Positions 1,009-46,983 of a stretch of DNA of 51,523 nucleotides are shown piece after piece. Source of the DNA: an uncultured Thermotogae bacterium (GTDB lineage Bacteria > Bipolaricaulota > Bipolaricaulia > CAYUCE01); NCBI GenBank assembly GCA_964443275.1, contig CAYUCE010000006.1:1-51523 (forward strand), in the 5' to 3' direction. Within the stretch, counting starts at the first letter, position 1. Each line of letters begins with the position of its first letter. Below the pieces are notes generated by a model. The model ran no database searches and had not been told where the DNA came from. It worked only from the letters and a program-made list of their open reading frames with translations. A program made the position numbers and the translations under genes.

Positions 1009-1082
1009 TGGGAGATCGTCTAATGGTAGGACGGCGGGTTCTGGACCCGCTAGTGGAGGTTCGAATCCTCCTCTCCCAGCCA
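1009..1082 (+). tRNA. tRNA-Gln(CTG)
   Basis: Cloverleaf: TGGGAGA/TCTCCCA acceptor stem, GCGGG-TTCTGGA-CCCGC anticodon arm, GGAGG-TTCGAAT-CCTCC T arm, encoded CCA; U1-A72 pair. Confidence 0.97.
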
Positions 1083-7393: not shown

Positions 7394-7902
7394 TATTTAA
7401 CTCTCACACTTCTGGATCCTCTGGCTAAAGCTATACGACCAGTTCGGGAAATCTCCTTTATACCGAAGCTGGCAAGCATGTCTTCCAAGGCGTTTACTTT
7501 TTTGCTGTTTCCGGTTATCTCTATGGTGAGTGACCTGTTTCCCACATCCACGATCTTGGCTCTGAAGATATCCACCAACTCTACTATCTCCGATCGATTT
7601 TCCTTTGTGGCACTTACTTTAACTAAAGCCAATTCTCTTTCTACGTGGTCTTCTCTAGTTAAATCGCTTACCTTAATTACCTCGATTAATTTGTTTAGCT
7701 GTTTTATTACCTGCTCTATAGTTTGATCATCACCTCTTACTGCGATAGTCATGCGGGACGCTTTAGGGTTATCAGTTCGCCCCACGGCAAGGCTCTCGAT
7801 ATTAAAGCCCCGGCGAGCAAAAAGCCCGGCTATTTTGAAAAGTACCCCGCTTTCGTTTTTGACTAAGGCAGCTAGAGTATGCAATTTATCTTCTTTAGGC
7901 AT
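7393..7902 (-). CDS. ilvN: acetolactate synthase small (regulatory) subunit
   Basis: ACT domain [13 protein letters not shown]; [18 protein letters not shown]. Confidence 0.96.
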
Positions 7903-9625
7903 CTTGGGCTCCGGTTAAGAAATCTCCAATAGAACCACCTGCCGGTACCATAGGGAAGACGTTTTCTTCTTCTGCTACCAGACAGTTAATTACCGTGGGG
8001 CCCTCCCGGTAGGATAAAGCCTCTTCCAATGCTGGCACGACTTCCTCTAGCTTGGTAACTTTGAGTCCTTTTGCCCCGTAAGCTTTGGCCACCAGGTCAA
8101 ATTGGGGAGAACTTCCCTTCAGGCAGGTTTCGGCGTACCGTCTTTCAAAGAAAAGCTCCTGCCACTGCTTTACCATCCCTAAAAAGCCGTTATTTAATAC
8201 AATTACGGTGATGGGCAGCTTTTCCCGAACACAAGTGGCAAGTTCCTGGATGTTCATCTGAAAGGAACCATCGCCCGTTACACACACCACTTGACGGTCC
8301 GGTTTACCAACTTGAGCACCCATTGCAGCCGGAAAACCAAAGCCCATAGTTCCCAGCCCGCCGCTGGTGACAAAGGTGCGGGGATGGTTGAATGGATAGT
8401 ATTGAGCAACCCACATCTGATGTTGTCCCACGCCGGTAGTAATAATGGCCGATTCATCCGCCAATTCACCTAATTTTTCGATTATGAATTGGGGTTTAAG
8501 TCCTTTGCCCATTTGGTAAGTGAGCGGATAATCCTCCTTCCAGGCCTTAATTTTTTCTAGCCAAGAGGCGAAGTTACGGGAATCTATTTCCTTTGTTTCC
8601 AGCGCACAGGTTAGATCATCCAAAATCCGTCCCGCATCACCCACAATGGGGATATGGGATTTAACATTTTTATCTATCTCCGAGGGGTCAACGTCTATAT
8701 GAATTACTTTAGCTTCCGGTGCGAACCTATTGGTATCTCCAGTTATACGATCGTCCAACCGGGTACCCACACAGATCAAAAGGTCGCAGTTGGTCACCGC
8801 CTTATTTGCATAACCGGTGCCGTGCATCCCCAGCATACCCAAAAATAGTGGGCTGCGGGCGGGAAAACTTCCCAGCCCCATTAAGGTGCAGGTAACAGGA
8901 ATTTTTAATTTATTAGCCAATTTTCTTAGCTTCTCCGAACCTTCCGAAGTTATTACCCCTCCACCGGCGATGATCAGCGGCCTTTCGGCTTTACCTAGAG
9001 CTGACAGTGCCTTCTCGATTTGCTTTGGATGACCAACGTAGTTAGGATCGTAACCCTTTGTCTCCACCCCATTCCGGGCCGGATGGTAATTTTTCAACTT
9101 AGCTAGCTGGACATCTTTAGGTACGTCAAGCAAAACCGGTGCCGGCCTCCCCGAGCGGGCAAGATAAAAGCATTTAGAAATAGTAGAGGAAAGCTCGGTG
9201 GGCTCGGTAACCATTTGGTTATACTTGGTAATGGGGGTGGTTATTCCTCTAACGTCAGCTTCTTGGAAGGCATCGTTTCCCACCAGATTCCTTGCCACCT
9301 GGCCGGTTAGGGCAACAATGGGCACAGAATCCATATAAGCGTTTGCCAATCCGGTAACCAGGTTTGTTGCTCCCGGACCGCTGGTGGACATACAAACTCC
9401 CGCTTTCCCCGTAACTCGGGCATAGCCGTCTGCGGCGTGAATGGCTCCTTGTTCATGAGCCGTAGTTATATGTTTGATTTGGTCGGCTTGGTATAGACAA
9501 TCGTATATGGGCATTATGGCTCCGCCGATGATCCCAAATATAGTGCTTACTCCTTCTGTCTTAAGTGATTCAATTACCGCTTGAGCGCCGCTTTTGGGTT
9601 TTGTTTTCATCTTAGTACTGCTCAT
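7895..9625 (-). CDS. ilvB: acetolactate synthase large subunit
   Basis: [22 protein letters not shown] motif GDGSFQM...NNGFLGMV. Confidence 0.96.
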
Positions 9626-15057: not shown

Positions 15058-15711
15058 ATGAAAGAATGTATTTATTGTAAAGATAATCGGGGTAGAAGGG
15101 AATGTCCGGCACTAGGGGGCCTCATATGTAGTAGGTGCTGTGGCGAAAACAGGGGTATCAATATAGACTGTCCCTTGGATTGTAGATATTTTAGAAAACA
15201 CGAAAGCTACCAGCGAGCTAAGTTAAGCGATGATTACAGGAGTACCTTGCTTGAAGTTGTGGAAGATCTCTTTGAAAAAGGACAGGACACTATAGGATTT
15301 CTCACCTATTTGGAAGGTTCTATCTATCAATACTATGAGGAAGAAAGAAAGAAGGCGGGCCGGGATAAAGAAGTCCGGGAAGCTTTGGAGTTTTTAAAAA
15401 GAAGGCTCAGTGCAATCGAAATAGTGGAGACCATAGGTTCTGATCTCGGTAAATATTTATGGAAAGGGATGCAGGAATACTTGCCGAAAGTGCCGGTAGA
15501 TGAGGAAGAGGCAAAAGAAGCAATCGAAAGGTTAGAAGAGGTTTTTAATAAATACTCAGACAGTGAAAATCCCCGCCAATGCCTGCAAGGCCTGTTAGGC
15601 CATGTGGAAAAAGACTTCCCTTCACCAGAGGAAGAGGAAAGATCGATAGTTTCTCCCCAAGGATTAATAATGACCCCGGATGATTTGAGGCGACAATATA
15701 AGCAAGGTTAA
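15058..15711 (+). CDS. hypothetical protein with Cys-rich N-terminal putative Zn-binding domain
   Basis: CIYC...RECPA...ICSRCCG...IDCPLDCRY. Confidence 0.7.
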   Translation: MKECIYCKDNRGRRECPALGGLICSRCCGENRGINIDCPLDCRYFRKHESYQRAKLSDDYRSTLLEVVEDLFEKGQDTIGFLTYLEGSIYQYYEEERKKAGRDKEVREALEFLKRRLSAIEIVETIGSDLGKYLWKGMQEYLPKVPVDEEEAKEAIERLEEVFNKYSDSENPRQCLQGLLGHVEKDFPSPEEEERSIVSPQGLIMTPDDLRRQYKQG

Positions 15712-15857
15712 GCGCCTATTTATCTCTCCAGCCGTGAGCAGGTTTATTAATCCCAACGGAAGCTTTAAATCATTTTGTCCGGGTAGATGGAACAACTACC
15801 ATGCGCTAATAAAGTGCCGAATACAATCTAGGGAGCAGATACACCTTAGAGAGAATT

Positions 15858-17564
15858 TTATCCAAACTTAAACAAGTTATTGCCTTCTATAGCAGGAGTA
15901 ACCTCCGAGGAAATCTTTACTCCTATTTTTGATCCTATTTTCGCGTTAGTAACGTTCTCATCGTCAATCTGAATATTTTCAACTTTAAATTTGCAAAAAT
16001 GAACATCTTCTATAAATATCTCTTCGCCTATAGATAAACCATGCCTTTCTAATTCAAAAATCAAAACATTTGGTTTAGGATAAACTTTCTCAATTGTCCC
16101 AATACGGGCCCATTTTGTAGGTTTAAAATTTACAAAGCCTGGTTTAGTTAGAGAGGAGTGAAAATCACCTACGGTTATTATCCCCCTTTTTATAGCAACA
16201 AAAACCCTGAAAAGTTGCCAAGTGGTAACTAAACTATATGGCCCTTCTTCAGCATCCTTAATTTCCTGGGTGGTAAATGGACAGGTGTCTCGCTGTGTAG
16301 GTTCCGTGAATTTCGAGTGATTTAGCACAAATACACCTTTTATCTCTTTGTTGGGATATTCCTTTTGGCGTCGATGAAGATATTTCAGAACTTGATTGCA
16401 TTCTGATTCTGATGGGGTAGGTCTCTTGATACCTTTGGCCTCAATTAAAGTCATGTCGAAGTCTCGAAGTTGCAAATCTTCCTGTAAATTTTCATCGTCT
16501 TGAATTTCTTCGTCCATGTTATGAACAGCCTGATATCCAATTTCATCTAAAAACTTTTCTAAATTTTTCACTAAACGTTCGTCATCGGCTTGTGAACCAA
16601 CTATCCCATATAAGAAACTATAACTATCTATTACTTTTTCAATATCTGACTCAATATCCAAGATTGTTCTTTTGAATTTCTCCTCAAGCTCCTCTCGTTT
16701 ATGATATAACTTTTCTAATTCAGGGACCCTATAAACAGATTTTCTATATAATTCTGTTATTGCTAACTCCGGAAACATTTTCGGCAAAATACTTGGCAAA
16801 TAATTAGTTAACAAATCTGATAAGGCTTGAGAGGGGTTTTCAAATAGTGGATGGATAAGAACTAAACCATAATTGTCTTCATCAACATCATGATAAGCTA
16901 TTGAGGTAATTTTGTTATCTTTATCTTCAGCTAGAGCTATAAAATTGTTTGCAAAGTAACCCAGAAAGTGAAATTTAGAGTTAGCTTTGCTGTTTTCTAT
17001 GTAATTATCCATCCATATTCCAAGGAGAGTTTCGTTTTTTGCAGAAAATAACTTATTTCGAATATTTAGAGAGATATCTAAAGGGACAAAATCTATAAAA
17101 GTAAAATTAGAAAACTCCGCTTCTTCTCTTGAGCGCCTTATCAATCTTCCTTCCTTTTTTCGAACTGTCACATATTGTTCCTCATACTTTAGGTGGGCTG
17201 GAACAATTAGTATCCCTCCTCTTTTCAGGATATTTTGGATGTCTTTTCTTATTAATGATTGGAAATAAGGTTTGGGGTCAAAATAGTTCTGTCCACGGGG
17301 TTTGATAATCAATTGTTCCTCCATGGAATGCTCCTCCGGTTCAGGATAATTCCCTTTCTCCATTTCAGGTTTCCGGTTATCTATCAATACGATATCCGCT
17401 TCTCCTAACCCCCTTAATGAGGCCCTTGGATATATGGCTTGCTCCTTAATAGATGTAGACACCTTTTTCCCCAATGTTCCCTCTTTTACGTTAAACCCCT
17501 TATCTTTAAGCATACGTACTATTTTCGCATTAATATCGATACAATAAATAATTGATCGGCCCAT
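15858..17564 (-). CDS. PD-(D/E)xK nuclease-domain protein with central coiled coil and C-terminal EF-Tu-domain-II-like beta-barrel
   Basis: EDLQL...LIEAKG...QVLKY nuclease motif; C-terminal IGTIEKVYPK...LSIGEEI...VENIQID...AKIGSKIGVK; AT-rich. Confidence 0.6.
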   Translation of the reverse strand: MGRSIIYCIDINAKIVRMLKDKGFNVKEGTLGKKVSTSIKEQAIYPRASLRGLGEADIVLIDNRKPEMEKGNYPEPEEHSMEEQLIIKPRGQNYFDPKPYFQSLIRKDIQNILKRGGILIVPAHLKYEEQYVTVRKKEGRLIRRSREEAEFSNFTFIDFVPLDISLNIRNKLFSAKNETLLGIWMDNYIENSKANSKFHFLGYFANNFIALAEDKDNKITSIAYHDVDEDNYGLVLIHPLFENPSQALSDLLTNYLPSILPKMFPELAITELYRKSVYRVPELEKLYHKREELEEKFKRTILDIESDIEKVIDSYSFLYGIVGSQADDERLVKNLEKFLDEIGYQAVHNMDEEIQDDENLQEDLQLRDFDMTLIEAKGIKRPTPSESECNQVLKYLHRRQKEYPNKEIKGVFVLNHSKFTEPTQRDTCPFTTQEIKDAEEGPYSLVTTWQLFRVFVAIKRGIITVGDFHSSLTKPGFVNFKPTKWARIGTIEKVYPKPNVLIFELERHGLSIGEEIFIEDVHFCKFKVENIQIDDENVTNAKIGSKIGVKISSEVTPAIEGNNLFKFG

Positions 17565-17783
17565 TTTTAATCACCACCGCAGGTTTACTTTGATCTCCAA
17601 CTTTCAGTACGTTTAGTTGCCTTGTTGAATCATAAAAAGCAGATGGCTTTTCCTCTAAATAAAACAACTTATCATAAGGTGCTAGAAAAGATTGTTATTT
17701 ACCGCAAATGCCCCTGCTTATTAATTTGTCTTTTCGGATTATTAAAATCATTATGTATTCAAGTTATTTATATAATATATCGT

Positions 17784-17966
17784 TCACTTTTCAAAGTGAA
17801 GTCTTTTCGATAACCTTGGATCCCTACGTATAATCTCTTGTCCTCCTGTGATATATGCTAATTCATCCCAATTTGCTTTGGTGAAGGCGCGTTCTATACA
17901 TCGCTTAATAGGCAAAATCATCTTATCTTCCCCTTCTGCCTCCAAAATACGCTTACATCTCATCAT
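17784..17966 (-). pseudogene. short ORF, possible N-terminal remnant of an abortive-infection (AbiJ/Abi_C-type) gene
   Basis: FTKANWDELAYITG...PRLSKRLHF recalls Abi N-terminal domains (from memory); stops abruptly within a TTCACTTT/AAAGTGAA palindrome. Confidence 0.35.
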
Positions 17967-17968
17967 TA

Positions 17969-20443
17969 TTAATCCTCTTCTAATTTCTCCACTATCTCAT
18001 CTACCAATTCACGAATTTCAGGTGTTATACGATTTAATACACTCTTATCCCCGGTCTCAATAAATTGTATCGCTTTTCGATAGGGTTTTAAAAACTCGAT
18101 CAAATCAGTTTGATCGCTTTCTTCAATAATCTGAAGTGTTCGTTTCATGAGTTCGATATCCCTATTTTCTAGGAGGTTTTTAAAGTAAGTTCCAACGAGT
18201 TCCTGGGTTCTATCAGAGGAGGCATCACTCACGTAAGTCAAAGCTTTCTTGAGATGGGTAATAGCTTTTTCATAATTCCCGCTGGATATTCTTTTCTTTG
18301 AGAGCTCAAGTCCTGTTCCAAATGCTCTGGCGGCGGTTTCTTGAACCATTGATTCCTTATCCATTTCAAGTGCTATGGAGTAAGCCTCGTTTGCATCCTC
18401 AAAAGCTTCAGAATATTCTTCTTGTTCCATGAAAGCCTGGCTTCGATGGAGAAGACAAATCACTATTATCATATCCTCTTCTGCGTGTTCAAGTGCTTTC
18501 GTGCACGACTTAATAGCCTCGGCACTTTTTCCCATCCTTAAATAAGTCACTCCAAGGTTCGACCATGCGAAGGGAAGTTCCGGTCTGATGTCAATGGCAG
18601 CTTGGTAGCAACGGATAGCCTCATCAAGTTCACCCTTTTCACTATAAGCAATACTCATGTTAAACCAAGCTTCATAGCCATCGGGCTTTATTTCTACTGC
18701 CTTTTGGTAGCAACGGATAGCTTCATCTAGTTCATCTTTTTGCCTATAAGCGTTACCCATGTTCTGCCAAGCTTTATAGTCATCGGGCTTAATATCCATT
18801 ACTCTTTTATAGCATTGAATAGCTTCATTCAGTTCTCCTTTCCATGAGTGAACAATACCCATATTGCCCCAAGCTGCATAGTCATCGGGTTTTATTTCTA
18901 CTGCCTTTTGGTAGCAGCGGATAGCTTCATCTAGTTCACCCTTTTGGCTACAGACGAAAGCCTTTTCAATATAGACGTAAACTAAAAGCTCTTCGTCATT
19001 ATCGGATTTTGCTTTGGAAAATAGATCTTCTACTTCCACCTCTGCATCTTCGAGGTCTCCAATACGTGCTAGGCTCATGACTCGCTGGTAATGTACCGTT
19101 TCTCGAATTGGTGAAGGGCTCGCTTCTTGGAGGTAATATAACCTATCTGTAATTTCTTTAACTTTATCTAAGGCGCTATCAGAAATGGAAGCTTGTAGTT
19201 TTTTAAACAATTCGGTAGGTCGCTCGCTTAGTTCTTCTGGTTCGAACCAAATCTTAATGAATTTGACAATAAACCTTAGACGTTTTCGGCCCGCCTCTAC
19301 GCGCATTTGGCGCCAGAATCTAAACAGTCGTTCATTTATATCATAATCATAAAGTGTCTCTTTCTTGTTCTTTACCTTAATAGCTTTCACAAAACCTCTT
19401 TTTTTCAATCGCCCAAGCTGGGTATTGGTAGCATTTACCGGCAATCGGGCAAAATTTGCTATTTCTGTAGGCGTGGAAGGACCATCTAATAGAGCAATGG
19501 AATCGACAATTTTCCTTTGTTGAGGAGAGAGCTCCTTCATGCGGTCCTGGAAATACGGAGTCATCTCGTCAAGTAAGTCAATAAAATTTCTTTCTACTTC
19601 TATGATCTTAAATTCAGCGAAAATTTTATAGAGACTTAAGATAAGACGAGGGTTACCCCCGGTTAGGTGGTTAATTGCTTTCAGGCGGTCTTCGTACTTA
19701 TCAAGTTTTTCCATAAGTTCTTCTTTTCCATCTAGCATTAACCGTTTTTTGATCACTTCCTTAACAAGGTCGTCTTCTATCTCCTGAAGCCAGATTATTT
19801 CAAAGAAGTTATAAAAAGACTCTCCATACTCTACGATAGCGTCAAACAGGCTAGGCGCAGCTCCAATGAGCATGAAAGTATCCTTGCTCATCAAAATATC
19901 CCTTAACCTACCCTGGTCTTCCTCAGTGAAATATGGTAGCATCTCATGAAGATTATCGATTAGCAGAAGAAATCGCTTGCCTGTTTCTTGAGATCTTTTG
20001 GAAAGATACTCTAATATTTCTTCCCTTTCTTTCTCTCCAGGGAGACTAACTTTATTTATCCTTTTTTTAAGTTGGTGTAATTTCTCATCCGGGGCTACTT
20101 GCCTTAGCCTTTCCAAAACTTCTAGGAGAAGATCTATTAAAGAGGTAATCCGATATTCCTCCTCGGCAAATAGAATGGGCACCCAGTCTTCGCTGAGTGA
20201 TTTGGAAAAACCATCCCATTTGATAGTTCCTTTCACCCCGTAATAGATAAGAAGAAGCAAATGAGTCTTACCTATTCCTCGGGGACCCACAAATAGAAAG
20301 CTCTGATTTGCTTTTCTATCTTTTCCCTCTTTTAGAGTCTTAAATATTCTTTCAAGTTCCTTTTCCCTACCTACCAGGGACTTTTTTAGATCTTGTGGAT
20401 CTTTAAGTGCGGGTGTATATCTGAAAATTTCGTTTACCATCAT
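17969..20443 (-). CDS. STAND-type NTPase with winged helix and C-terminal TPR repeats
   Basis: GPRGIGKT Walker A, LLLIDN Walker B, TGGNPR GxP motif, wHTH, 34-aa TPRs (ELDEAIRCYQKAVEIKPD). Confidence 0.85.
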   Translation of the reverse strand: MMVNEIFRYTPALKDPQDLKKSLVGREKELERIFKTLKEGKDRKANQSFLFVGPRGIGKTHLLLLIYYGVKGTIKWDGFSKSLSEDWVPILFAEEEYRITSLIDLLLEVLERLRQVAPDEKLHQLKKRINKVSLPGEKEREEILEYLSKRSQETGKRFLLLIDNLHEMLPYFTEEDQGRLRDILMSKDTFMLIGAAPSLFDAIVEYGESFYNFFEIIWLQEIEDDLVKEVIKKRLMLDGKEELMEKLDKYEDRLKAINHLTGGNPRLILSLYKIFAEFKIIEVERNFIDLLDEMTPYFQDRMKELSPQQRKIVDSIALLDGPSTPTEIANFARLPVNATNTQLGRLKKRGFVKAIKVKNKKETLYDYDINERLFRFWRQMRVEAGRKRLRFIVKFIKIWFEPEELSERPTELFKKLQASISDSALDKVKEITDRLYYLQEASPSPIRETVHYQRVMSLARIGDLEDAEVEVEDLFSKAKSDNDEELLVYVYIEKAFVCSQKGELDEAIRCYQKAVEIKPDDYAAWGNMGIVHSWKGELNEAIQCYKRVMDIKPDDYKAWQNMGNAYRQKDELDEAIRCYQKAVEIKPDGYEAWFNMSIAYSEKGELDEAIRCYQAAIDIRPELPFAWSNLGVTYLRMGKSAEAIKSCTKALEHAEEDMIIVICLLHRSQAFMEQEEYSEAFEDANEAYSIALEMDKESMVQETAARAFGTGLELSKKRISSGNYEKAITHLKKALTYVSDASSDRTQELVGTYFKNLLENRDIELMKRTLQIIEESDQTDLIEFLKPYRKAIQFIETGDKSVLNRITPEIRELVDEIVEKLEED
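18540..18950 (-). repeat. tandem 102-nt TPR-coding repeats (approximate limits)
   Basis: Near-identical tttctactgccttttggtagcarcggatagcttcatctagttca at about 18691 and 18895. Confidence 0.8.
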
Positions 20444-20452
20444 TTGCCTCCC

Positions 20453-21658
20453 TTAAATTGCATGATACCTAAGCCACCAATCCTTTAAAACCTTAGTGGC
20501 AAAGGTATATTCTTCTTTTTTAGAATCATAGGTGATGTAAAAATCGTTTTCCAATTCAGCAAGTAAGTAACTAAACGTCTCTTCTTCGCCCCTTCCATTC
20601 GTTTCTCGCTTATAGATATTCCATAGTTCTTTTCTTGAGAGATGGTCTTGCCTGGAGAGAACTGTAAGAAAAACCTTGGCTATATCCGCTGTTCCCTCAT
20701 CAAAGTATTCCTTTATACGCTCATAATAATGTTCAAAGTATGTCCGGTTATAAGCAGCAAGGACTTCTTCATGATAGGCTTCTTCAATAATTTCTGGGGA
20801 AAGATCCTCTTGTTTCCTATTTTCCATTTCATTAATGCTTTCTCTAACCAGGATCTGTATAAAGTAGGGTATGGGGGGACCTAGTATCTGGAGATATTTC
20901 TTTAATAGTGAGGGCGATATTTCCCGGATCCCGGTCTCTTTTTTGATAAGAGCTTTTATAAAGTTCTTAGCGTTCTCATTGGAAAATTCCCCGATTCTGA
21001 TGCTGTTTAGGTCGTTAATTGCTTTTGTACCTGCTCCTACTCGTCCGAGCACCTTTTCCATACCGATCGATCCACCAATAACCCAGCGCACTTTGCCTTG
21101 TAACTCGGGAATATGTCGTAGACCTCTTAGCCAAAATAGGAAATCTTCAGCTTGGTTCTTGGATTTATTCTTACAGATTCTCAATACAAGTAGCGGAAGT
21201 TCATCTACGATGAGGATATTTTCCCCATCCGTCCCCTTTAGAAGTTTAATTAAAGCTTTTCCTTGATCTTGCCAATCTTCCTTGAGGCTGTTCCTTAAAG
21301 CAATCTTGAACTTCGCTACCTCTATTTCCTCTATTCGATCTACAGTTTTCCCAGCTATCTTTTTCACATTTGCTAAAAATTCTCTCGTTCTATATTTGTC
21401 CAGTAAAGCCGTCATAATTTCTGCGACAAAGTCTTCCGGACCTCTTACCCATTCCACATCTAGATAAAAAGCTTCCCAGTTTTCCTTGGGATTGTCCACT
21501 AAATTCAACATTATGCTGGTCTTGCCGAAACGCCGTGGTGCAGTGAGCATTACTGAACTGGTTTCTAATGCCTTCCAAATATCGTTGATTTCTTTTTCCC
21601 TATCCCAAAGATCGCGGCCTCGGACTGTTTGCCCAATCACCAAACGTGGTAATTCCAT
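20453..21658 (-). CDS. P-loop ATPase (archaeal-ATPase/STAND-related) with C-terminal wHTH
   Basis: APRRFGKTS, ILIVDELP, IGGS; GAGGTG SD favours ATG 21658 over GTG 21667. Confidence 0.85.
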   Translation of the reverse strand: MELPRLVIGQTVRGRDLWDREKEINDIWKALETSSVMLTAPRRFGKTSIMLNLVDNPKENWEAFYLDVEWVRGPEDFVAEIMTALLDKYRTREFLANVKKIAGKTVDRIEEIEVAKFKIALRNSLKEDWQDQGKALIKLLKGTDGENILIVDELPLLVLRICKNKSKNQAEDFLFWLRGLRHIPELQGKVRWVIGGSIGMEKVLGRVGAGTKAINDLNSIRIGEFSNENAKNFIKALIKKETGIREISPSLLKKYLQILGPPIPYFIQILVRESINEMENRKQEDLSPEIIEEAYHEEVLAAYNRTYFEHYYERIKEYFDEGTADIAKVFLTVLSRQDHLSRKELWNIYKRETNGRGEEETFSYLLAELENDFYITYDSKKEEYTFATKVLKDWWLRYHAI

Positions 21659-21683
21659 TATCGCCACCTCTTTGTAACAAAAG

Positions 21684-21729
21684 TGTTATACAACATTTAT
21701 GTTATACAACAAAATCGTTGTCTTGTCAA
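21684..21729 (-). promoter_or_regulatory. sigma70 promoter overlapped by two 12-bp operator-like repeats
   Basis: TTGACA-17-TATAAC on minus; TGTTATACAACA at 21684-21695 and 21700-21711. Confidence 0.7.
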
Positions 21730-22022
21730 GGGCAAAGTTGGAAATAGGAAAATAGTACATTTTCCAACTTTTCTTAAATGCCTGATATAATTGATTTGGG
21801 CAGCGTTCAACAAACCACCTCTGTATTTTTATATTGCCGAACACACTAAACACTTATCCCTGGTAGGTTGTATAAAATAGCTAAAGAGGGATTAGAAGGG
21901 GAGGTGGGAGACAACGCCAAGATTTAATTGCCTGTCTCAGTTAAATAATTTACAATATTGACACATTTTTGCAACGAATCCCTCCGGAAACAGGTGCGGA
22001 TTTGAGCTACGTGTTATAATTT

Positions 22023-22235
22023 ATGAAAGGAGATGGGCCAATGGCTAAATGGAAGATAAATCCTAAACACTATATGATTGCAGCGGCTGTTTCGTTTGTA
22101 ATCGCTTCGATCGGCTTCTCGGGAGTTGTCTTGAAAAATGATCTGGTGAGGAGACTTATTTTTGGTTTTGTGTGGTTAATTGTTGGTGTTGGATGGCTTG
22201 GTCAATATTTTCATCGTACTACTTCGCCTCACTGA
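22023..22235 (+). CDS. small two-TM membrane protein (start may be ATG 22041)
   Basis: Two hydrophobic segments; GGAG before the second ATG. Confidence 0.6.
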   Translation: MKGDGPMAKWKINPKHYMIAAAVSFVIASIGFSGVVLKNDLVRRLIFGFVWLIVGVGWLGQYFHRTTSPH

Positions 22236-22312
22236 CCGCCTTTTTTGATGGCTCGAGGATATACGATATGGTGATTTTGATCTTGCGGATAGTCAATCAA
22301 TAAAGACAAGAG

Positions 22313-46515: not shown

Positions 46516-46613
46516 TAAAGGTTTCATGTGGCTAAATAGATACACCGTGTGTTTATTCGACGTTGAAGCAGCTCGTAAAAAGGCTGAGCGCTGAAAGGGT
46601 CGGAATAAAATAT

Positions 46614-46983
46614 GGAGGGAGGAGTAAGCCGGATTCTGTTTTAAAGTGAGCATCTATCTAAGCGGCCTACCCAGAGGCTCAAGCGGGCCACTTTTAACCG
46701 CCTCTTTATTTGGCCTTGCTCCGACTGGGGTTTGCCGTGCCTCGGACCTCGCGGTCACAAGCGGTGAGCTCTTACCTCACCATTTCACCCTTTCCCCCAC
46801 TTACTTAATCATTGATTAAGTAAGTGGGGGAGGTATATTTTCTGTGGCACTTTCCAGGGATTTCTCCCTCTGGACTTATAAATTTAAATTGTCGTCCAGC
46901 AGCCTGCCCTGTGGAGTCCGGACTTTCCTCAGGCTAAGAATTATATAACTATAATTTTAGCCTGCGCTCCTTCTCTCCCTCTC
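46614..46983 (-). ncRNA. rnpB: RNase P RNA (type A-like, P18 absent)
   Basis: GAGGAAAGTCCGGACTCC, AGTGCCACAGAAA, AGGGTGAAA, GGCAAACCCC...GGAGCAAGGCC, ACAGAATCCGGCTTA; P1 ends pair. Confidence 0.96.

Follow-up and report, generated by a model that had tools for sequence, protein, structure and literature searches.

We describe here a two-gene cassette found in a 51,523-nucleotide (nt) stretch of DNA from an uncultured Thermotogae bacterium (GenBank assembly GCA_964443275.1, contig CAYUCE010000006.1, positions 1 to 51,523 of the forward strand; GTDB lineage Bacteria; Bipolaricaulota; Bipolaricaulia; CAYUCE01), the whole of which is hereafter designated the window. The cassette consists of a promoter, an operator array and two genes, A and B, which encode predicted ATPases, and we have very little doubt that A and B alone make up a conserved core that is inherited and transferred together across bacteria and archaea. 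It lies in an accessory island of about 6.1 kb, together with a fragmentary open reading frame (ORF C) and a gene for a protein of 568 amino acids (aa) (gene D). An earlier interpretation of the same DNA, made from its letters and translations (hereafter, the sequence-only reading), had seen four co-oriented minus-strand ORFs, the first three separated by gaps of 9 and 2 nt, inserted among housekeeping genes; ORF calls and annotation of the flanks bear this out in every point. To that observation, the present analysis adds the paralogy of A and B, the altered Walker B motif of B and the conserved operator array. The two-ATPase module is conserved and apparently undescribed, and a defence or conflict role for it is plausible, at a little under one half.

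A and B form a conserved pair

One genome per species was scanned, which gave 270 stretches encoding A, and 80 of these, from bacteria and archaea, were retained as loci; by word-indexed search, A had 259 relatives in many uncultivated bacterial and archaeal lineages. A homologue of B, sought with the first 440 residues of the protein, lies directly downstream of A and on the same strand in 76 of the 80 loci, 11–190 nt after the A alignment, and the four loci without B are three contig ends and one truncated match to A (L021). True homologues of A occur in two of 40 class-level relatives of the source organism, and both of these also hold B and two operators, while in one acidobacterial family A is present in 6 of 81 genomes. 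More distant pairs, at 24–28% identity, are carried on plasmids of Moraxella osloensis, Segatella copri (with a shortened B), Clostridium tagluense and C. estertheticum, where the proteins are annotated merely as "hypothetical", "ATP-binding" or "tetratricopeptide repeat" proteins. That the two ATPases are a conserved pair, as the sequence-only reading had proposed, is accordingly borne out by the loci, by the class relatives and by the four plasmids inspected.

The two genes also share their history. Pairwise identities among A proteins and among the N-terminal parts of the B proteins are correlated with r = 0.96 (1770 pairs from 60 loci), a value reached in none of 999 Mantel permutations, and in the closest loci the A and B identities are the same (57/57, 55/55 and 50/50%). 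These matched identities indicate that inheritance and transfer of the two genes have been joint. On a quick tree of A, archaea stand in at least three places among the bacteria, and the copy in the window adjoins that from a Bipolaricaulota genome. Downstream of the 62 complete pairs there is a convergent gene in 24 cases, a same-strand gene in 32 (within 60 nt in 14 of them) and nothing within the locus in 6. With 24 of the pairs ending at a convergent gene and no neighbour family present in more than 7 loci, the pair is a complete unit in many genomes.

Two further loci may be mentioned here. The pair in a contig labelled Klebsiella (L057) had no DNA match in 5,426 Escherichia coli genomes. 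On the Agrobacterium tumefaciens plasmid pAtCFBP7129a (L091, 6962–10198), a lone 1078-aa protein with a B-like N-terminus is encoded with no A-like gene annotated alongside; its neighbours are two adenylate/guanylate cyclase-domain genes, a ThiF-family gene and a Tn3 transposase.

In Pfam, A matches ATPase_2 (PF01637) with 33.8 bits against a gathering cut-off of 33.2, and many of its homologues carry a precomputed PF01637 assignment. Its Walker A motif, PRRFGKTS, is invariant, its Walker B motif (hhhhDE) has D155-E156 in all 24 sequences compared, and its profile matches two archaeal ATPases in the PDB, 2fna (E 3.9e-5) and 2qen (E 0.004). Alignment of A with the N-terminal 430 residues of B by hhalign gave a probability of 96% over 304 columns, which extend from the P-loop domain through the helical lid to the winged helix. 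Judging from these profiles, A and B are almost certainly distant paralogues, predicted to be AAA+ ATPases of the STAND/ORC-Cdc6 type, each with a helical lid and a winged helix.

In B, the NTPase begins at about residue 20 according to Pfam. The motif G-x-G-K-[TS] is present in 62 of 62 B sequences and GGNPR is near-invariant; the Walker B motif is [DE]-N in 59, with Ser in the remaining 3. The Pfam families matched by these 62 homologues are AAA_16 (61), MarR_2 (48), TPR_2 (48), HTH_24 (43), nSTAND_NTPase5 (31), ORC-CDC6-like (30) and nSTAND1 (30). It can be stated with high confidence that B keeps the P-loop while having Asn at the catalytic position, and that A has the canonical catalytic Walker B (DE); from this we infer that B would bind ATP and hydrolyse it poorly, with A as the hydrolysing partner. 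The characterization of B as a STAND NTPase with a winged helix and tetratricopeptide repeats (TPRs) and lacking an effector, given in the sequence-only reading, agrees both with the STAND/ORC-Cdc6-like matches and with the absence of any effector family among the 25 commonest Pfam families of its homologues.

The remainder of B is uneven in its conservation. When B of the window was compared with its three nearest homologues, identity was 65–66% in residues 1–430, 37–42% in the TPR part and 62–65% in the last 54 residues; this tail is conserved family-wide, with a near-invariant E809 among the 62 sequences. The complete B proteins range from 465 to 1038 aa, and about 14 of the 62 have short TPR arrays or none. 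There is little doubt that B carries a variable TPR array between two conserved parts. This pattern fits a sensor under diversification, yet it is also a general habit of repeat proteins. Within the array, four tandem DNA repeats of 102 nt (34 codons) were noted at 18547–18950, of which copies 2 and 4 are 88% identical; this likeness suggests that TPR units were duplicated or underwent gene conversion recently, and points to turnover of the repeats.

A promoter and phased palindromes ahead of A

The promoter-like element ahead of A, TTGACA-17 nt-TATAAC, lies 34 nt upstream of the GTG start codon and 43 nt upstream of an alternative ATG start at 21658, which follows a Shine–Dalgarno-like GAGGTG and would give a protein of 401 aa, the length of the nearest homologues. 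The consensus promoter that the sequence-only reading had placed before the first genes was recovered as the single exact match in the window. Our consensus scanner omits it because the scanner demands T at position 6 of the −10 hexamer. In many of the bacterial loci viewed, a TTGACA-like −35 box stands at the same position.

An array of palindromes accompanies this promoter from locus to locus. Among the 74 loci with 150 nt of sequence upstream of A, 71 have at least one copy of the palindrome TGTTGTAYAACA there, as scored with a position weight matrix (PWM; at least 10 bits), and tandem copies follow one another at a period of 16 nt. At least two PWM sites are present in 42 of the 74 loci and the spacing is 16 nt in 44 of 47 adjacent pairs, against a background of 27 matches in 1.97 million positions; since the PWM was built from sites of a strict pattern, the upstream counts are partly circular, whereas the background is not. 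The strict pattern itself, GTYRYRYRAC, occurs in 62 of the 74 upstream regions at 1.2 sites per region, as compared with 38 sites in 987 kb elsewhere in the same loci (0.006 per 150 nt), and its spacing is exactly 16 nt in 25 of 27 adjacent pairs. The best site of a locus is most often the perfect palindrome GTTGTACAAC (26 loci), followed by GTTGTATAAC (14), GTTATATAAC (10) and GTTGCACAAC (6).

In the bacterial loci viewed, the array comes after the TTGACA-like −35 box and overlaps the −10 box, and in archaeal loci (Altiarchaeales, Methanoculleus, Thermoplasmatota and others) the same array is present, its motif being TATA-like. In the window, the two copies of TGTTGTATAACA are the two best distinct PWM sites of the genome (Table 1), and the third-ranked genome site scores 15.9 bits. 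It is nearly certain that the cassette carries 2–4 copies of TGTTGTAYAACA, phased by 16 nt, over the −10 box and the leader, with no comparably strong site elsewhere in this genome. We read this array as putative autoregulation by a dimeric winged-helix protein of the cassette. As for which protein this may be, the columns with the highest mutual information with operator position 4 (G or A) are spread across A and B alike; of the 12 highest in B, 4 lie at or beside its winged helix (positions 338–362), and of the 12 highest in A, 1 lies at or beside the winged helix of that protein. The signal is confounded by relatedness, so that we drew no conclusion from it.

A literature search for GTTGTACAAC returned only primers and unrelated sequences. 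The cross-domain operator array, newly found here, is the most distinctive property of the module.

Upstream of the distant plasmid pairs, other palindromes or phased repeats stand at the same place. Thus, on the Moraxella osloensis plasmid pNP7-2 (L087, 7800–8000), a TTGACT box is accompanied by two copies of another long palindrome, TAACTATAAAATTATAGTTA, placed around it, and it seems that there the operator principle has been kept while its sequence has changed.

The accessory island and its passengers

The block of about 6.1 kb that holds A, B, C and D is an accessory insert at a variable spot between core genes. Its GC content is 35–40%, as against 40–50% in the adjacent bins, and related DNA lacking it was found among the contigs of one public run from another study (X7; minimum likeness of 80%). 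One of these contigs joins position 15711, the last base of the stop codon of a 217-aa gene, to 21856, skipping 6144 nt with 6 letters between (depth 54.6; side 44), and a second, of 985 nt, joins 15683 to 22271, skipping 6587 nt with 95 letters between and with sides of 657 and 230 nt. As these contigs bridge the block, related populations exist without A, B, C and D together, and the block is a true insertion or deletion between core genes. The bridging evidence consists of these two joints; the depth in X7 is about 70–100 in the flanks and about 1–10 in the island, and thin cover of the island in runs X3, X5 and X7 (D being hardly covered in X5) was not counted as evidence. The genes that flank the island, for the 217-aa protein and for pyruvyl transferase, are on separate contigs wherever they are listed in the 40 class-level relatives, so that these genomes could not reveal an empty site. 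A search of the island ends for flanking direct repeats, att-like sites or a target-site duplication gave none that was convincing.

Two features near the right junction (21855/21856) were seen in passing. Just beyond it, at 21867–21876 on the plus strand and about 140 nt upstream of the promoter, GTTGTATAAA differs by one mismatch from the operator core and may be a chance match or a leftover site. Between the island and the pyruvyl transferase gene, at 22023–22235 (plus strand), there is a 70-aa ORF with no Pfam match, which is missing too in the contig that bridges 15683 and 22271.

ORF C matches AbiJ_NTD5 (Pfam, E 4.4e-8) at profile positions 5–51 of 93 and then ends at a stop codon after 60 aa, stops occurring downstream in all three frames. 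A complete AbiJ has an N-terminal domain and a C-terminal HEPN domain, whereas C holds part of the N-terminal domain only; the sequence-only reading was right to see in it a truncated Abi-like remnant. The gap of 219 nt between C and D is AT-rich, has stops in all three frames and contains weak promoter-like sites of its own, and a scan of the window for a minus-strand terminator-like site between B and D found none.

Gene D had no above-threshold match in Pfam, NCBIfam, PADLOC or PHROGs and no match in a search of IMG/VR. A word-indexed search gave 5 relatives and an exhaustive profile search 2966 representatives at E ≤ 0.001, 552 of them at E ≤ 1e-30, mostly of 550–620 aa; of 10 clusters of this family that were looked up, 5 had a source name, which always read "hypothetical" or "uncharacterized" protein, and 5 had no name. 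Among 73 family members, D351, E362, K377, G378, K394 and N415 are invariant and D363, E375 and H416 are at least 90% conserved. This pattern is compatible with a PD-(D/E)xK site followed by a Q..KY helix, and it is from this motif that D is a putative PD-(D/E)xK nuclease. Thus, of the 568-aa PD-(D/E)xK protein announced in the sequence-only reading, the conserved acidic residues and the lysine motif stand; the putative nuclease core had no Pfam match even at E ≤ 5 (6 members) and no support from sequence profiles of the PDB. The PDB profile search matched only the C-terminal 60–70 residues, which are similar to a beta-barrel domain known from eIF5B, IF2 and EF-Tu (E 4.4e-4 for eIF5B). With PADLOC, 2 families each matched 1 of the 73 members, at E 1.5e-4 or weaker.

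Neither C (by tblastn) nor D (by tblastn and by a profile of the 73 family members) was found in any of the 80 A–B loci, which marks both as unrelated passengers or bystanders of the island. D is not the effector of the pair; it is an independent passenger, and the linkage of a nuclease to the two ATPases that the sequence-only reading had supposed did not hold up. For the D family, a single metagenome locus (L090) came to light, and neither A nor B is present within 8 kb there. The D homologue of this locus stands immediately after a full type I hsdM-hsdS-hsdR set, which shares its strand, and is split into two adjacent frames (7426–9122; 183 and 379 aa), through a frameshift or as two genes. 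A second, distant member of the D family (profile E 3.5e-18) is encoded in the source genome itself, on contig C14 (segment C14_-0_9869).

Table 1 Features of the island in the coordinates of the window
Feature	Position	Strand	Description
Promoter-like element TTGACA-17 nt-TATAAC	21701..21729 (−35 21729–21724; −10 21706–21701)	minus	Matched exactly only once within the window
Operator copy 1, TGTTGTATAACA (near-palindrome)	21700..21711	minus	Overlaps −10; best PWM site of the 1.85-Mb genome, 23.5 bits
Operator copy 2, TGTTGTATAACA	21684..21695	minus	Follows copy 1 at a distance of 16 nt; ranks second among the distinct sites of the genome, 18.1 bits
Gene A	20453–21667	minus	404 aa from GTG; predicted AAA+ ATPase (PF01637) of about 401–404 aa, helical lid, C-terminal winged helix
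Gene B	17969–20443	minus	824 aa; AAA_16, TPR-S and 5 TPR stretches (Pfam)
B residues 1–430	19154–20443	minus	Predicted STAND/ORC-Cdc6-like NTPase, GGNPR motif, MarR-like winged helix; Walker A GxGKT, Walker B hhhhDN
B residues 431–770	18134–19153	minus	TPR-S and TPR array; fast-diverging middle
B residues 771–824 and stop codon	17969–18133	minus	Conserved C-terminal tail
ORF C	17784–17966	minus	60-aa fragment, AbiJ N-terminal domain 5; remnant outside the A–B module
Gene D	15858–17564	minus	568 aa; large unnamed family; PD-(D/E)xK-like central motif, C-terminal translation-factor-type beta-barrel; independent passenger
Accessory island	15712..21855	.	Segment absent from related populations; bridging contigs, GC 35–40%

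The housekeeping genes around the island are ilvD, ftsH, dxr and a gene for an FeS-assembly protein on one side and those for pyruvyl transferase, adenylate kinase and an amidase on the other. The source genome assembly (G000) comprises 1.85 Mb in 94 contigs. Elsewhere in the window are two ordinary RNA genes, a tRNA-Gln(CTG) at 1009–1082 (plus strand) and a bacterial class A RNase P RNA (249.9 bits) at 46609–46983 (minus strand), which show that the organism is a bacterium.

Possible roles and comparison with known systems

As the functional unit we propose a self-regulated cassette of two genes (promoter, operator array, A and B) in a 6.1-kb island with the unrelated passengers C and D; with its conflict or defence role included, we hold this proposal to fall slightly short of an even chance. 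In the resting state, the winged helix of A, of B or of both would sit on the palindromes as an array of dimers and keep the operon repressed. B would be an ATP-binding, poorly hydrolysing sensor; the trigger that its TPR array may bind would most likely be a protein from an invading element, and binding would lead to ATP-dependent co-assembly of B with its hydrolysing partner A, by which the autorepression would be lifted. Because there is no effector domain or conserved third gene, the A–B oligomer itself may be the output. Our preferred guess for this output is an ORC-like, ATP-dependent engagement of DNA that would block replication or transcription of the invader or of the cell, and such a specific, DNA-directed output is in our estimate quite unlikely. 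In its fullest form, which we put forward tentatively as a possibility well below even, the pair would be a previously undescribed effector-less immune system of bacteria and archaea, in which sensor B and catalytic A would co-assemble on an invader trigger and act on DNA as an ORC-like ATP-driven clamp or filament, their own promoter being shut at rest through a palindrome that doubles as the −10 box in bacteria and as a TATA-like element in archaea.

The points in support of a defence role are the STAND-like sensor architecture, the accessory status of the pair, its patchy distribution, the presence of archaea at three or more places of the tree, and neighbours of defence type in some loci, here the AbiJ remnant and D. 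In a Methanoculleus locus (L073, 10032–11456), a short B, poor in TPRs, is immediately followed by a gene that matches the PADLOC candidate system PDC-S01 (E 9e-114) and has cluster-mates, grouped by blastp only, in three other loci (L079, L080 and L003), and in a Nitrospirota locus (L014) B is followed by a protein with an SduA-like N-terminus, whose cluster includes one more locus (L017). Next to the distant pairs on plasmids are Qat genes and a methylase; DUF262 and WYL proteins; or DUF3800, GIY-YIG and an integrase. The pair belongs, as the sequence-only reading had supposed, to no system named by the models searched: PADLOC v2.0.0 (2023) had none for A and, for B and its plasmid homologue in L087, only TPR-type or weak models (E ≥ 2.5e-5; for example AriA and mad8) and no Avs model, and NCBIfam (2026) gave no system name for either protein. 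The literature search found no description of the A–B pair or of the operator motif; a table of 589 STAND clades in PMC13581612 may include the clade of B together with a defence score.

A number of results weigh against the defence proposal. The 25 commonest Pfam families of the 62 B homologues include no effector domain such as a nuclease, a protease or TIR, and no third gene is conserved, as every neighbour family, clustered within four genes, is limited to at most 7 of the 76 loci with a B gene; the downstream genes, whose identity the sequence-only reading had wished to see compared, are accordingly not conserved. In a census of the first 125 of the 225 neighbours within two genes on either side, in which the 25 commonest families were listed, a Pfam family is shared by 4 proteins at most and a PADLOC family by 2 at most, and the commonest families (CCG, adh_short, MutS2/Smr and histidine kinases) are mostly of the housekeeping kind. 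The expected enrichment near defence genes is weak at this distance. In one methanogen family, that of the Methanoculleus locus with PDC-S01, A is present in 29 of 55 species genomes with near-constant scores, which is more like a stable lineage gene than a defence gene of fast turnover, and on the quick tree the phyla are clustered far above chance (18 changes, the minimum being 14), so that transfer is not rampant. Moreover, A had no match in 50,697 phage records or in IMG/VR, and no fused forms of A were found among longer proteins, the last being weak evidence.

A different role for the same two proteins, which we consider unlikely, would be that of a non-immune, signal-sensing pair of transcription regulators in the manner of the STAND proteins of the MalT/LAL group, in which the TPR array of B would bind a cellular ligand or protein and A and B would oligomerise on the phased palindromes to control their own operon and same-strand downstream genes. 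The winged helices of both proteins (with MarR_2 and HTH_24 matched by 48 and 43 of the 62 B sequences), the phased sites at the promoter, the mostly housekeeping neighbours and the stability in 29 of 55 genomes of the methanogen family are in keeping with such a role, as are the 32 of 62 complete pairs with a same-strand gene downstream (14 within 60 nt) and the interspersion of STAND clades of defence and non-defence type described in PMC13581612. Against it, the only strong sites in this genome are those at the promoter of the cassette itself, hence there is no regulon; 24 of the 62 pairs end at a convergent gene, hence there is no regulated cargo at that place; and with downstream genes that are not conserved, a regulator targeting only itself would be left without output. 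In addition, the sites over the −10 box and the leader take the position of a repressor, unlike the activator boxes of MalT.

The compactness of the two-gene operon, with its short or overlapping junctions, the palindromic operator over the promoter, the presence on plasmids and in an accessory island and the patchiness in bacteria would also suit a selfish addiction or abortive-type module resembling autoregulated toxin–antitoxin pairs, in which one ATPase would inhibit growth, the other would restrain it and the operator would serve tight autoregulation. We regard this as improbable. We know of no toxin–antitoxin family that consists of a paralogous AAA+ pair with sizes of about 400 and 500–1000 aa; a variable TPR sensor is unexpected in a plain addiction module; and no toxin domain was found by Pfam in A or B or among the 25 commonest families of the B homologues.

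The four-gene model of the sequence-only reading, that is, a split system in which A and the effector-less B signal in trans to the PD-(D/E)xK protein D, is highly improbable: the common strand, the lack of a minus-strand terminator-like site between B and D, the invariant D/E...ExK-type motif and the gain or loss of all four genes together relative to the X7 relatives favour it, and it is largely refuted by the absence of D and of its family profile from all 80 A–B loci, with 24 of 62 pairs followed by a convergent gene and no third gene family in more than 7 loci, by the D-centred locus beside type I hsdMSR, by the size of the independent D family (552 representatives at E ≤ 1e-30) and by the 219-nt AT-rich spacer with its own weak promoter-like sites before D. 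Scarcely credible, too, is a replication or partition module of a degraded integrated element, with ORC/Cdc6-like initiators on iteron-like repeats beside their own gene, which would accord with the ATPase–winged-helix architecture, the phased repeats adjoining the gene and the pairs on plasmids, since the sites number just 2–4 and always lie within the promoter and leader (with the −35 box in register in the bacterial loci viewed), no integrase, relaxase or replication gene family recurs among the neighbours examined, the C. estertheticum plasmid has a separate annotated replication initiator and the TPR sensor is left unexplained.

Should the A–B cassette prove to be an immune sensor, the STAND-type systems would gain a member with an output other than a fused or linked enzyme, which would widen the known modes of action of NLR-like proteins, and it would be a prokaryotic counterpart to the sensor/helper NLR pairs. 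Whatever the function, the operator TGTTGTAYAACA moves with the genes across phyla and across the divide between bacteria and archaea; it is rare for a cis-regulatory element and the protein presumed to bind it to stay together through horizontal transfer. The pairs on plasmids of cultured Moraxella osloensis and Clostridium species make the hypothesis directly testable. The annotation of the island is also corrected, in that the "nuclease" D represents a separate, large, unnamed family that deserves a study of its own.

Among known systems, the Avs (AVAST) proteins share with B the architecture of a STAND-type NTPase (AAA_16, nSTAND, GGNPR), a winged helix and a C-terminal, fast-diverging TPR array, and share with the pair the accessory, patchy distribution. 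In contrast, Avs proteins are single genes with fused effectors, whereas B has no N-terminal or other effector domain, and the cassette has an obligatory second gene for a paralogous ATPase, Asn at the catalytic Walker B position and an operator array of its own. The cassette is therefore not filed under Avs: the STAND sensor architecture is there, and the effector and a match to the curated models searched are not. Resemblance to the archaeal ATPases of PF01637 is confined to A, which exceeds the gathering score and whose profile matches 2fna and 2qen; A differs from them as a distinct subfamily that is always paired with B and accompanied by the operator, and the two structures were deposited as "Conserved hypothetical protein" and "Walker-type ATPase", with no function.

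MalT combines an NTPase, a repeat sensor and a DNA-binding module with repeated sites at the regulated promoter, and all of these elements have a likeness in the cassette. The differences are that the DNA-binding module is here an internal winged helix instead of a C-terminal LuxR-type domain, that two proteins are involved, and that palindromes over the −10 box and leader have the geometry of a repressor, no regulon being detected in this genome. In plants, sensor and helper NLRs are encoded as pairs of adjacent paralogous NOD-type ATPases, of which the degenerate one is the sensor and the other is intact. With these the comparison is an analogy only, as the sequences are related no further than through the STAND class and the cassette lacks a cell-death domain.

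The BREX system differs in its gene content and in its proteins: PglZ, PglX and BrxL are absent among the 25 commonest Pfam families of the 125 neighbours, no neighbour family is recurrent, and BrxC is much larger than either A or B. The P-loop is retained in B, whereas PMC12839542 describes BrxB as having no Walker motifs. According to the same paper, BREX combines in one system BrxC, an active ATPase of the ORC/Cdc6 clade, with BrxB, an inactive STAND protein (PMC12839542), and it is in this that the likeness lies: in both cases an active and a degenerate ATPase of the STAND/ORC-Cdc6 kind appear to be encoded together, with DE in A and DN in B in the present cassette.

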